A stretch of 45,334 nt of DNA from a virus (Duplodnaviria; Heunggongvirae; Uroviricota; Caudoviricetes). Positions 30,001 to 36,000 of this stretch are shown here, one piece after another. A program made the position numbers. The stretch lies in IMG/VR virus record IMGVR_UViG_2877251553_000007. One strand, given 5' to 3'. Positions within the stretch are counted from its first letter, which is position 1, and every line of letters begins with the position of its first letter.

Positions 30001-33000
30001 TATCCACGCCGGAGGTGCCGGTGGCTTCACGCACGGTACCGGAGCAGGTGGCGTTGATCCGCAGGCGCTTACGACCAGCGGCAACATCAGCACGCAGAGT
30101 TTCATTTTCAGCTCTCGCATCGGCTAATTCCCTCGAGTATCTGGCATCAAGTGCAGCGACATCACGCTGGCGTATCTGCATATCAGTAATTGTCGCGTTC
30201 GCCAGCTCCAGCTCACTGGCTTTTTTATCGCGCTGCTCTTTGTAGATGATGGCGTGAACACGGTAATGATTCAGCCCCAGACTAAGCGCACCACAGGCCA
30301 CCAGCAGGGCAATGATGACCACGCACAGAACACGGTTCATATCACCACCAACGGATTGCCCAGACCAGAACAGCAATTGCCACAATACGAATGGCAAAAG
30401 CTGCCGCTCTTGTTAAATCCAGACTGGCTGGCGTCTCCACTTCAATGCCTTTCATAATGGACAACCTCAGAAAGAATCTTTTATACTTCCTCACAGGGAA
30501 AGCACCTCCCTCACCATAATTTCTCCCTTGCCTTACTCAAGGTCAGAAAACACAAAACCCCGCTTGCTGCCAACAAACGGGGTTTTTACTTTTATTCACT
30601 TAGGTTTTGCCAGTTCACAGGACTTCGTGTTATCCGCCCGCGTGAGCAAGCGTCATTTTTCAGCAAAATATTCTGCTACCTGTCGATACCCCAGCACGCC
30701 AGCGCGCTCTCCTGGTCACGCCGCGATACCTGCCCGTAACAGTTATTTGAGCGGTTCCGACAGTCCCTGCCGCCGTCATATATCCAGCGACGAATTTCAG
30801 CACATGCACCTTTCCGGTCTCCGGCGTTCAGTTTCCGGTAAAACGTTGAGCTGAAACACTTACCGGGGCCAATGTTGTACGGACAGAATGACGCGATCCC
30901 CGATTTCTGGGGTTCGGTCAGCGGCACTTTGATGTTTTTCTCCACCCATGCCAGCGCCTTATCACGTTCAATGGCGTTAACCTGGTCGCATTTTTCCTTC
31001 GACAACTTCATGCCCGGAACGACAGGTTTGCCATCCACCAGGATGGCACCGCGGCAGATGGTCCAGATACCCGCGCCATCACGGTATGCCGTGGTGTGGT
31101 TACCTTCCTTTTCATCCAGAAACTGGTCGAGAATGTCAGGCGCAGGCGCACCAGCGGCAATCAGCGCCAGAACGGCAGCCGACAGGCCGTATCTGATTTT
31201 TGCGTTCATGGATATTTATCAGGATTTATCGGTTTCTGAGCCCTGGATATGTTTATCAGTTCCAGCCTGTTGCCTCAGGCTGCTAACAGGTCAATACAAT
31301 CATGAGGATTATTTATGGACAATAACACCATTTCTCTACAGGAGTTGCTCGACAGCATTTCCAGGCTTCGGGAAGACGTGAATACCCTTACCGTCGCCTT
31401 CTCATATCTGGCATTCTCAATTCCAAGGGAACAGATGCAATCAACGCTGGCATCAATCCAGTTTGAATCATGCAATCCCAAATGGTCTCAGGAACAACAA
31501 GACTCTTTCAGGCGGCTTGCTGTATTACTGGATGAAAAATATGCTGGTAAAATTACCATTTCGGCGGACTCTTCAGAGAACCCGTAATTATTCCCGGTAG
31601 TTTTCCTCTGTAGGTTATCAACACATCCTGCGCCTCTAAAATTACGGGGCGCTTTTCCGGCGACTGCTCATCCCCTTCACATAACCCGGCAGCAACATCC
31701 AGGAAGACCTGTCTGATGCTCCTTCTGGCTGCTGCCTCATAAAACTCCAGCGCGGCACCTTCAACACGGTCCAGCGAGATGTCCAGGTCAAAAATTTCAC
31801 CGTCAAAGCGTTTTTTGTCCCGTAACGCTAAAGTTACCGTAACTTTATTCTCAAAATTGCGGATCCCTTTCACAATCAGTTCATAGTTTTGAGTCATTGA
31901 ATTACTCTCCCCGTGCAGCCTTACGACGGTCCTCTCTGATTTTGAAATACAGGTTAGTCAGATATGTCAGCAGCCCAAACAGCAGACTCCCCAGTACGCC
32001 TATTGCCGCCCACAGAGACGGGGAAACCCTGTCCAGCAACTGCAGGAACCAGTAGCCCGTTCCCACCGCTGACGTGGTGTATGACACACCTGTTGTGATT
32101 TTTTCCATCTGGTACATACCCCGTCTCCCGCAATCCGGAAGCTCACAACAACAAGTGGGGCATCAGCTCACACCGACACCCCCTGCGCATGGTTACATCA
32201 TCATTTCGCCGTCAGGCTGAGGCCCTTCACTACCGTCAGGCTGAGACCCGACGCCATCTGAAACAGCACTGTCATCCGCAATGCCTTCCGGCTCCGGAAC
32301 AGTCGGTGCGCCCAGCAGTTCATCCAGAATTGAATCCACTTCTGCATCAAGACGCGCCTCAAGGTTCTGCCGAAGTTGCTGTTTCAGTGCGCTCCGGACT
32401 TCTTCAGAGCGCAGGACTTCCTTCACTGCCTCAGCAGTGACCAGCGATTTTATTTCTGACATAGGATTTTCTCGTTGAAATGGGTTATTAAGAAGGTTGT
32501 TCCGGAATGAGTGGGGCTTCTGTTTTTGCTCCGGCTGACTGACTGGCGCTGATTGAGGTAGCCTGAGTTTAACGGACACTCCTTCCTGAAATAGAATGGC
32601 ATCAGAAGGAGCTAATAATGAGCAGAAAAAACCAACGTTACTCTAAAGAGTTCAAAGCCGAAGCTGTCAGAACGGTTCTTGAAAATCAACTTTCGATCAG
32701 TGAAGGCGCTTCCCGATTATCCCTTCCTGAAGGCACTTTAGGACAATGGGTTACCGCCGCCAGAAAAGGGCTCGGTACTCCTGGTTCCCGCACGGTGGCT
32801 GAACTGGAATCTGAAATTCTGCAACTGCGTAAGGCGTTAAATGAAGCTCGCCTTGAGCGAGATATATTAAAAAAAGCAACAGCGTATTTTGCACAGGAGT
32901 CGCTGAAAAATACGCGTTAATCGAACAATGGCGACAACAATTTCCCATTGAAGCGATGTGTCAGGTATTTGGTGTATCCAGGAGCGGTTATTACAACTGG

Positions 33001-36000
33001 GTACAGCATGAACCCTCAGACAGAAAACAAAGTGATGAGCGGCTAAAACTGGAGATTAAGGTGGCACATATCCGCACTCGCGAAACATATGGAACCCGGC
33101 GGCTCCAGACGGAGCTGGCAGAGAATGGCATCATCGTTGGTCGTGAACCGCCCCGGGAATCCTGGAGACTAAACTTCCTGAGAAAGAGGTAAACAGGATG
33201 ACTAAAAATACTCGTTTTTCCCCCGAAGTCCGTCAACGGGCAGTCCGTATGGTTCTGGAAAGTCAGGGCGAATATGACTCACAATGGGCGACAATTTGTT
33301 CCATTGCTCCAAAGATTGGCTGTACGCCGGAGACTCTGCGTGTCTGGGTTCGCCAGCATGAGCGGGATACCGGAGGCGGTGATGGCGGGCTCACCACCGC
33401 TGAACGTCAGCGTCTGAAAGAGCTGGAACGTGAAAATCGTGAACTGCGCCGCAGTAACGATATCCTTCGCCAGGCTTCCGCTTATTTTGCGAAGGCGGAG
33501 TTCGACCGCCTCTGGAAAAAGTGATGCCACTGCTGGATAAGCTGCGTAAGCTGTACGGGGTCGGACCGGTATGCAGTGAACTACATATTGCCCCGTCAAC
33601 GTATTACCACTGTCAGCAACAGCGACATCATCCGGATAAACGCAGTGCCCGTGCGCAGCGCGATGACTGGCTGAAGAAAGAGATACTGCGCGTATACGAT
33701 GGGAATCATCAGGTATACGGTGTGCGTAAAGTCTGGCGTCAGTTGTTACGGGAAGGTATCAGAGTGGCCAGATGCACTGTGGCACGTCTCATGGCGGTTA
33801 TGGGACTTGCCGGTGTTCTCCGGGGTAAAAAGGTCCGTACGACCATCAGCCGGAAAGCCGTTGCCGCAGGCGACCGCGTAAACCGTCAGTTCGTGGCAGA
33901 ACGACCTGACCAGCTGTGGGTGGCTGATTTTACTTACGTCAGCACATGGCAGGGCTTCGTCTATGTGGCGTTCATCATTGATGTGTTTGCCGGATACATC
34001 GTGGGGTGGCGGGTCTCATCGTCCATGGAAACGACATTCGTGCTGGATGCTCTGGAGCAGGCGTTATGGGCCCGTCGACCGTCCGGCACGGTCCATCACA
34101 GTGATAAAGGTTCTCAGTATGTATCGCTGGCCTACACACAGCGGCTTAAGGAAGCCGGATTACTGGCATCAACAGGAAGTACAGGCGACTCGTATGACAA
34201 CGCGATGGCGGAGAGCATCAATGGTCTTTACAAAGCGGAGGTAATACACCGTAAGAGCTGGAAAAACCGTGCAGAAGTGGAACTGGCCACACTCACGTGG
34301 GTGGACTGGTATAACAATCGACGATTGCTGGAAAGGCTGGGCCATACTCCTCCGGCAGAAGCAGAAAAAGCTTATTATGCTTCCATCGGAAACGATGATC
34401 TGGCAGCCTGAGTTCACAGATAAAACACTCTCCAGGAAACCCGGGGCGGTTCAGTCGTGACCGACTGGCACGTCTTCGTAAGGAGCTAAGGCTACGCTGT
34501 AAGCAGAAACGCAAGTTCAGAGCGACTACGAACCCGAACCACAATCTGCCAGTTGCGCCAAATCTGCTGAACCAGACGTTCGCTCCTACAGCACCAAATC
34601 AGGTCTGGGTGGCGGACCTGACGTATGTTGCCACTCAGGAGGGATGGTTGTACCTCGCTGGCATCAAAGATGTTTATACGTGCGAAATTGTCGGCTACGC
34701 CATGGGAGAGCGCATGACAAAAGAGCTGACAGGTAAAGCCCTGTTTATGGCGCTCAGGAGCCAGCGCCCACCTGCCGGGCTAATCCACCACTCTGATCGA
34801 GGTTCACAGTACTGCGCATACGATTACCGGGTCATACAGGAGCAGTCTGGTCTGAAAACATCAATGTCGCGTAAAGGTCACTGTTACGACAACGCTCCGA
34901 TGGAAAGCTTCTGGGGAACGCTGAAAAATGAGAGCCTGAGCCACTATCGTTTTAATAACCGGGATGAAGCCATCTCAGTAATACGGGAATACATTGAGAT
35001 TTTCTACAATCGTCAGCGTCGTCACTCTCGTCTGGGGAATATCTCCCCGGCAGCCTTCAGGGAAAAGTATCATCAGATGGCTGCTTAAAAAAAGAACAAA
35101 TGGTAGTGTCCGCTATTGCCAGTACACCTCAGATTTTCTCTGCGGCCCTTTTATCAATCTGCCTGCGCCAGAAATCGCGCACTGCCCTGTACCCACCCGA
35201 AAGAAGATACAGCACACAGACCGCCGTACAGAAGTACAGCATCACCTGATGAATAAATGTCATAGTTTCTTACCGTTATGGTTGACAATGAGAACTGTTT
35301 TCATTTAAAAAACCGATATACGAAAGCATCTTTTCTTTACATTCTCCATTGGGATTACCTCCGCCAGCTTCCGTTCCTGCCGCTGGCGGCTTTTTTTATC
35401 ATGCCGCGGCATCCGCGTTGTTCACTTCCACCTTCACACTGTCAATCAGCAGCGTATATGTCGCCGCCTTTGATATGCCTGTCAGTTGCAGTTTGTCCGC
35501 CGCCCCTGATGCCGGAGATTTCACCAGTGTGAACGGCGTCCCCCGTTTCTCATCCAGTACCGGCGTCACCTGAATGCTGTTGTTTCCGGCAAACTCAAAA
35601 GCCAGTGTGTGCCATCCGTTATCAAAGACCCCGAACGTATCCAGCTTCGCATTCGGCTTCTTGTGGTACATCGCGTTCAGGTTCGTCGCATCCGTCTGCA
35701 GGAAGAAGGACATCAGCATGTCGTTGCCTTCCTCTGCCAGCGTCACTCCCTCCGGCAGGGACGACAACTGCCAGTAAATGCCCAGGGCAAACCGATTCGG
35801 CATCAGTGAACCCGGCAACTTAAACCGTACGCTCACACGTCCCCCTTCTTCAGTAACTCCACTCCCTGTCCGGCTGCATCATGCTCCAGAAACCAGATGT
35901 GGTTTTCCGGTTTATTCAGTTGCAGGGCCTTACCTCCCGTAGCCCCGCATCACTGACCACCGCTTCAGCAATGTTTTTATTAACATTGTCTCCGCTCGCC

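Follow-up and report, generated by a model that had tools for sequence, protein, structure and literature searches.

IS629 belongs to the IS3 family of insertion sequences (IS) and was first sequenced from Shigella sonnei (Matsutani and Ohtsubo 1990, as cited in PMC3271280). It generates target duplications of 3-4 bp, and in Escherichia coli O157:H7 genomes 62% of its copies are located in prophages (PMC3271280). Here we analyse a 45,334-nucleotide viral stretch, IMG/VR record IMGVR_UViG_2877251553_000007 (the window, by which we mean this stretch at its full length), in which a complete IS629 lies inside a second IS3-family element, IS600. Copies of an IS are usually assigned to one isoform at >95% protein or >90% DNA identity, following ISfinder practice. 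The surrounding genes belong to a lambdoid prophage and follow the late gene order of Stx-type lambdoid prophages (Q, transfer RNA (tRNA) genes, stx in the toxin phages, nanS-p, DUF1378, DUF826, holin, lysozyme and Rz).

We conclude with high confidence that the locus records two successive IS3-family transpositions in the late region of a defective lambdoid prophage, on a Shigella (presumably S. dysenteriae) chromosome. In a first step, IS600 entered the DUF1378 gene, situated between the nanS-p gene and the lysis cassette (DUF826, holin, lysozyme), duplicating GAT and cutting off 20 codons; in a second step, a copy of IS629 entered that IS600, duplicating GTCG, in the lineage of a single assembly. 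The nested insertion is a textbook case, an ordinary by-product of the heavy IS load of Shigella, and its biology is already known.

Anatomy of the nested elements

The outer element spans window positions 32554-35131, a composite of 2578 bp that begins with TGAGGTAGCC and ends with ACACCTCA; a script comparison of its ends found the terminal inverted repeats to be imperfect. GAT is present on both flanks (32551-32553 on the left and 35132-35134 on the right, neither assigned to a strand), and only one GAT is found in the empty site of an E. coli O104:H4 prophage (locus L003). Removal of the inner element together with one GTCG leaves 1264 bp, which align in one piece over positions 1-1264, at 99.8% identity, to copies annotated as 'IS3-like element IS600 family transposase'. 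These annotated full-length matches lie on plasmids of Shigella boydii, S. dysenteriae and E. coli, and the protein cluster of the outer OrfA contains 'IS600 ORF1' names. The reference lengths of both elements were taken from full-length matches to many copies. The near-identical 1264-bp element thus has the characteristic ends and the 3-bp target duplication of IS600, but not the intact orfA-orfB arrangement needed for the OrfAB transposase of an autonomous element. The outer element therefore reads as IS600 by descent, but apparently as a disabled copy.

The 5' part of IS600 (32554-33143, plus strand; element nucleotides (nt) 1-590, including the left GTCG copy at 33140-33143) carries the left inverted repeat, a promoter-like site (32569-32597) and orfA (32618-32920, plus strand), which encodes 100 amino acids (aa) with an HTH_Tnp_1 domain. 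It also contains an A7G slippery run (32869-32876), a hairpin (32882-32915) just after this run, and the 5' end of orfB, which starts at 32956 (plus strand) in the -1 frame relative to orfA. The 3' part (34454-35131, plus strand; element nt 587-1264) has the right inverted repeat and the remainder of orfB with its rve/DDE core; within this part, an open reading frame (ORF) of 159 aa (34609-35088, plus strand) carries the rve domains. After in-silico excision of IS629 the element is like IS600 in its orfA of 100 aa, its orfB of 272 aa, the A7G run, the hairpin and the 3-bp duplication; the copy in the window differs in not being autonomous, since its orfB is split by IS629 after codon 61-62.

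The inner element (33144-34453, plus strand) is exactly 1310 bp long. Its 25-nt inverted repeats, TGAACCGCCCCGGGAATCCTGGAGA and TCTCCAGGAAACCCGGGGCGGTTCA (33144-33168 and 34429-34453), are 92% complementary according to the repeat finder, and its ends read TGAACCGCCCCGGG.../...CCCGGGGCGGTTCA, with the TG start and CA finish expected of IS629. GTCG stands on both sides (33140-33143 and 34454-34457, the right copy not assigned to a strand), at a point where intact IS600 copies have a single GTCG. Within the element, all on the plus strand, lie orfA (33198-33524, 108 aa, frame 0), the ALIL frameshift pseudoknot (33479-33595), whose full-model match of 116.2 bits exceeds the gathering threshold of 50, and orfB (33521-34411, 296 aa, -1 frame) with HTH_21 and rve domains. 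IS600 and IS629 thus share the canonical IS3-family layout, in which orfB lies in the -1 frame relative to orfA.

The window IS629 is 100.0% identical over positions 1-1310 to copies on virulence-type plasmids of S. dysenteriae. Against E. coli genomes its full-length matches reach up to 99.3% and are mostly 95-99% identical, a range that agrees with the IS629 subtypes described in PMC3271280; full-length one-piece matches number thousands of copies. Plasmid and genome copies are currently annotated merely as 'IS3 family transposase', with equivalents also labelled 'programmed frameshift'. The inner OrfB of 296 aa, however, matches exactly ACD06928.1, 'IS629 transposase orfB [Shigella boydii CDC 3083-94]', and its cluster includes 'IS3-like element IS629 family transposase' entries. 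The length of about 1310 bp with the proper ends, the near-identity (by proxy), the 0/-1 frames with a frameshift stimulator and a duplication within the 3-4-bp range all identify the element as IS629, and we see no notable difference from known copies in length, repeats, ORFs, ALIL or duplication. Given its intact ends, reading frames and frameshift pseudoknot and its identity to other copies, this IS629 presumably arose recently and remains active; it would have been produced via the copy-out/paste-in route typical of the IS3 family.

The break in IS600 falls after element nt 590-593. In the reconstructed OrfB of 272 aa, HTH_21 spans residues 27-83 and the rve/DDE core residues 107-205; IS629 interrupts the reading frame after codon 61-62, within the arginine codon CGT of ...GIIVG-R-DRLARL, inside HTH_21 and upstream of rve. 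The left stump of orfB continues for 17 codons into the left end of IS629 before a stop, giving a chimeric ORF of 78 aa; an exact look-up of this product returned no record, which is uninformative, as it is probably never called as a gene. The disrupted IS600 retains both ends and orfA. Because the catalytic core of OrfB is severed from the N-terminal DNA-binding parts, this copy would, from what is known of IS3-family biology, be unable to make its own OrfAB transposase, and with its ends intact it could be mobile only with transposase supplied in trans by another IS600 copy. To the right of the break, GTCG is followed by TGACCG, which recalls the IS629 end TGAACCG; end-like targeting was considered and set aside, the match being too short to mean anything.

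A preliminary description of the window had placed an IS600 at 32554-35131 with a GAT duplication and, within it, a complete 1310-bp IS629 with a GTCG duplication. Every one of these coordinates was right, and the identities are borne out by the 99.8% match to annotated IS600, by the exact length and inverted repeats of the inner element and by its OrfB, identical to a deposited IS629 orfB. The same description had put the break between GIIVG and RDRLARL, which is correct, the cut lying strictly within the intervening arginine codon.

The interrupted gene and the order of insertion

Removal of the composite and one GAT restores a minus-strand ORF of 64 aa, whose exact protein is a widespread 'DUF1378 family protein' (Pfam PF07125, 119.1 bits, model positions 1-59). 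In the window, the truncated DUF1378-family gene (35129-35263, minus strand) encodes 44 aa instead of 64 and still matches PF07125 over model positions 1-44 of 59 (94.6 bits, cutoff 25). Read on the minus strand, the last three bases of IS600, TCA (35129-35131), form the TGA stop of this gene; the shortened protein lacks a 20-residue tail but still has the hydrophobic helix and the basic stretch. The truncation of a small hydrophobic ORF on the minus strand at 35129-35263, and the supply of its stop codon by the IS terminus, had both been proposed beforehand, and the restored site confirms them. What the present analysis adds is the identity of the gene as DUF1378, the cut point in HTH_21, and the distinction between an old, shared IS600 insertion and a private IS629 insertion.

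The next late gene downstream of DUF1378 encodes a DUF826 protein (32193-32462, minus strand, 89 aa, starting MSEIK; Pfam PF05696), now 2.6 kb further away. In the uninterrupted L003 its 270-nt homologue (8986-9255, 89 aa) lies 25 nt after DUF1378. Some records call DUF826 as a protein of 134 aa that starts inside the left end of IS600 (window 32463-32579, minus strand; 7353-7757 in locus L004, described below); this extension is an annotation artefact created by the IS600 insertion. The 44-aa DUF1378, the 78-aa and 159-aa fragments of IS600 OrfB and the 134-aa 'DUF826' are all artefacts of insertion and call for caution in annotation.

The rebuilt empty site of 1048 bp is 99.8% identical to, and colinear with, prophages of E. 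coli O104:H4 and relatives, in loci annotated SASA-family esterase / DUF1378 / DUF826. In L003, window segments 31562-32554 and 35132-38105 abut with a 4-nt BLAST overlap, which corresponds to GAT plus one ambiguous T.

As a signature of the IS600 insertion we used an exact look-up of the 44-aa truncated DUF1378 product. Many long Shigella contigs have this allele, for which the collection lists 128 indexed blocks, and the IS600/DUF1378 junction string was found in 12 assemblies whose loci were retrieved, including S. boydii CDC 3083-94 (CP001063) and several CP0268xx chromosomes. The species of the latter was inferred from consecutive accessions, since plasmids with adjacent numbers bear the label S. 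boydii or S. dysenteriae. Eleven of the 12 assemblies have no IS629 in this IS600, which is either a continuous 1264 bp (seven assemblies) or interrupted by an IS66-family element (four). The closest relative, L004 (CP026807.1), has an uninterrupted IS600 at the DUF1378 site; compared with the window, it has no mismatch in the 4151 bp to the left, and 5 mismatches with 10 one-base homopolymer indels in the 6810 bp to the right. L004 represents the state immediately prior to the arrival of IS629. Comparison with these related prophages, L003 lacking both insertions and L004 lacking IS629, upheld the boundaries of both elements.

The remaining assembly, retrieved with the methyltransferase allele of the window (L025; CP026825.1, GCA_002949915.1), has both nested junctions. 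CP026825.1 is 100.000% identical to window 30154-45334, without mismatch or gap, and is evidently the source record of the window; its companion plasmid CP026826.1 is labelled Shigella dysenteriae. Among the retrieved loci, the IS629/IS600 junction is present only in L025 and L030, both from CP026825.1, and the 43-nt junction GAATGGCATCATCGTTGGTCGTGAACCGCCCCGGGAATCCTGG is unique to one assembly in the collections searched. IS600 thus came first, in an old and shared insertion, and IS629 second, private to one assembly: the order follows because 11 other assemblies have IS600 at the site without IS629 and only CP026825.1 has both, and the first event is old because assemblies of both S. boydii and S. 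dysenteriae have the identical junction. The series from empty site to IS600 to IS600::IS629 can be used to mark lineages within S. dysenteriae and S. boydii.

Some database matches resembled further nested copies and were rejected. E. coli genome matches covering 72% of the query have an IS600 and an IS629-like element merely side by side, and the S. flexneri plasmid hits are likewise adjacent elements. The plasmid hit H78, with a span of 2577 bp, is the reciprocal arrangement, IS600 inside IS629.

An alternative is that IS629 entered some other IS600 first, and that the nest reached this site afterwards, either by transposition of the 2578-bp unit with IS600 transposase in trans or by recombination or gene conversion. 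The composite does retain both IS600 ends, and gene conversion between IS600 copies seems to occur here, as in locus L009 with its patch of 14 single-nucleotide differences at element nt 295-459. However, the 11 other assemblies, including the near-identical relative, have IS600 at the exact site with the same GAT, and unit transposition into an empty site is excluded because IS600 was already there. A second copy of the junction was found neither elsewhere in the window nor in 5,426 E. coli genomes or 72,556 plasmids; pattern scans of species-representative genomes, in which Shigella is probably represented as one E. coli genome, and of metagenome contigs gave none either. The 159-aa OrfB fragment, a marker of the broken IS600, likewise occurs once only in CP026825.1. 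Nothing supports the idea that recombination brought the nest in from another copy, and we regard this whole alternative as highly unlikely.

The nest could also be an artefact of an unpolished long-read assembly in which IS copies were falsely joined, and the source record does contain errors. Against L004, all ten indels are one-base deletions in the window, in C or G runs (window 35840, 35942, 36510, 36577, 37272, 37602, 37725, 37771, 40111 and 41122). The intact genes of L004 (nanS-p 564 aa, Q 126 aa, DUF968 329 aa) are represented by fragments in the window, where nanS-p (35399-37089) is split into three ORFs and those of Q and DUF968 are shortened. Real pseudogenisation of the three genes was considered and rejected, each indel being a one-base deletion in a C/G run; long-read assembly error in CP026825.1 is the most likely cause of the fragmentation, and the same error may account for the split ORFs of J (5478-8773) and of the portal protein (22387-23750). 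All of these errors, however, are point indels and none is structural. No base of IS629 is missing, its limits coincide with its inverted repeats, and the 4 bp of IS600 sequence duplicated on its two sides are present as a single copy in intact IS600. Because the joining of dispersed repeats creates no target duplication, we consider a misjoin extremely improbable, and two successive transpositions remain our reading of the locus.

Some caveats attach to this reading. The nested junction is known from one record only, and the systematic C/G homopolymer deletions mark the source assembly as an imperfect long-read assembly. The names IS600 and IS629 are given by proxy, from depositors' annotations and near-identity to many named copies rather than from ISfinder reference sequences; we regard these proxies as sufficient. 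The activity of IS629, the inactivity of IS600 and the neutrality of both insertions (see below) are deductions. Nothing contradicts the structural reading itself: the element ends, the duplications and the empty site are exact features, for which chance is not an issue.

IS600 as a host of other insertions in Shigella

Nesting that involves IS600 is very common in these genomes. The reciprocal nest is found in a plasmid of S. dysenteriae ATCC 9752 (CP026838.1, locus L014, 2501-5077), where a complete 1264-bp IS600 lies inside IS629 at nt 1150-1152 of the latter, with a 3-bp overlap and a composite length of 2577 bp. The IS600 copy at the DUF1378 site itself holds an IS66-family element of 2504 bp, at element nt 330-338, in S. 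boydii CDC 3083-94 and its relatives (L005, L006 and L012, at 7068-9571 in each; also L007, which has an indel in the 5' segment of IS600 and an IS110-family gene nearby). In these IS66-interrupted loci the DNA beyond the left end of IS600 is replaced and the lysis cassette is no longer there, which indicates an IS-mediated rearrangement. Two unrelated chromosomal loci (L028, 2438-3768, and L029, 2500-3829) carry IS3-family elements of 1331 bp in IS600, at nt 510-514 and 571-576, with ORFs of 121 aa and 301 aa and a duplication of about 5 bp; we take these elements to be probably IS2.

All of these nests are the same kind of event as that in the window, with the inserted element, the insertion point or both differing each time. 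No junctions are shared among them, and there is no sign of composites moving as units. Such nests are most simply explained if an IS that lands in another IS does no harm, so that these insertions build up in genomes with hundreds of IS copies. That resident IS600 copies would be preferred landing pads for other IS, beyond such neutral tolerance, seems very unlikely to us, even though independent hits by IS629 (nt 590-593), an IS66-family element (330-338) and IS2-like elements (510-514 and 571-576), and the reciprocal hit of IS629 by IS600, were found in the few genomes sampled. On the same very unlikely reading, composites with intact outer ends might also be mobilised in trans as compound elements.

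A different kind of variation was seen in another assembly's IS600 copy at the DUF1378 site (L009, CP026834.1, 6133-7396), which has 14 substitutions, all confined to element nt 295-459; the patch looks like gene conversion from a diverged IS600 copy.

The host prophage

The composite is surrounded by minus-strand genes that make up the late region of a lambdoid prophage resembling Stx phages. In the order of transcription they encode antiterminator Q, an N6/N4 methyltransferase, three tRNAs, the STnc100 small RNA, DUF1737, the nanS-p esterase and DUF1378, followed by DUF826, a class II holin, DUF1327, lysozyme and Rz; after these come head genes of the HK97 type and tail genes of the lambda type. 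The STnc100 and three tRNA genes (37578-37781 and 37858-38104, minus strand) were identified with Rfam, STnc100 at 119.8 bits. They lie between the methyltransferase and DUF1737/nanS-p, and the homologous stretch of L003 carries the annotations Ile, Arg, Arg.

Among uninterrupted relatives, the non-stx E. coli O104:H4 prophage comes closest, at 98.3% identity over window 35132-38105; Stx phages match at ~83%. Stx phages carry their toxin genes at the position of the tRNA/STnc100 stretch; the window, in contrast to Stx prophages, is without stx, has STnc100 between the tRNAs and DUF1737/nanS-p, and is truncated and IS-ridden. A search of the window for stx genes found none. A 317-aa ORF at 40165-41118 was considered as StxA and turned out to be a DUF968 protein.

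At the right edge of the window, an IS3-family orfB (44594-45334, minus strand), whose C-terminus seems frameshifted, follows directly after the replication gene, and in the sister locus L016 (1-2521) chromosomal genes (MAPEG, methyltransferases) lie just beyond it. The prophage is therefore without its immunity/integrase end, which was lost to another IS. IS600 and IS629 are both oriented against late transcription. Since the prophage has no early regulatory region, its late operon is probably silent, and neither insertion is likely to be under selection.

Other IS are located among the tail and head structural genes: an IS110-family gene (802-1998, plus strand; model 'RNA-guided transposase', 239.7 bits), an IS66-family element (14855-17171, plus strand) whose TnpA and TnpC match curated models, and an IS1 (18714-19217, minus strand). 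With IS600, IS629 and the IS3-family element of the right edge they make six IS elements in 45 kb. The Shigella-like load of IS1, IS3, IS66-family and IS110-family copies recognised in the preliminary description is therefore present in the window, and the label of the S. dysenteriae plasmid that accompanies CP026825.1 agrees with it. The locus illustrates how IS pile up in decaying Shigella prophages, and has little significance beyond such bookkeeping.

Downstream of the tail-tip gene J, an ORF of 410 aa (3521-4753, minus strand) contains collagen-like Gly-X-Y repeats and gives weak, sub-threshold matches to Scl adhesin models; it probably encodes a tail-fibre protein. Finally, a second, paralogous lambdoid prophage in the same genomes (L017, L018, L020 and L022-L024) encodes an identical N6/N4 methyltransferase of 349 aa, together with a different replication module and a holin gene directly after nanS-p, with no DUF1378 or DUF826.

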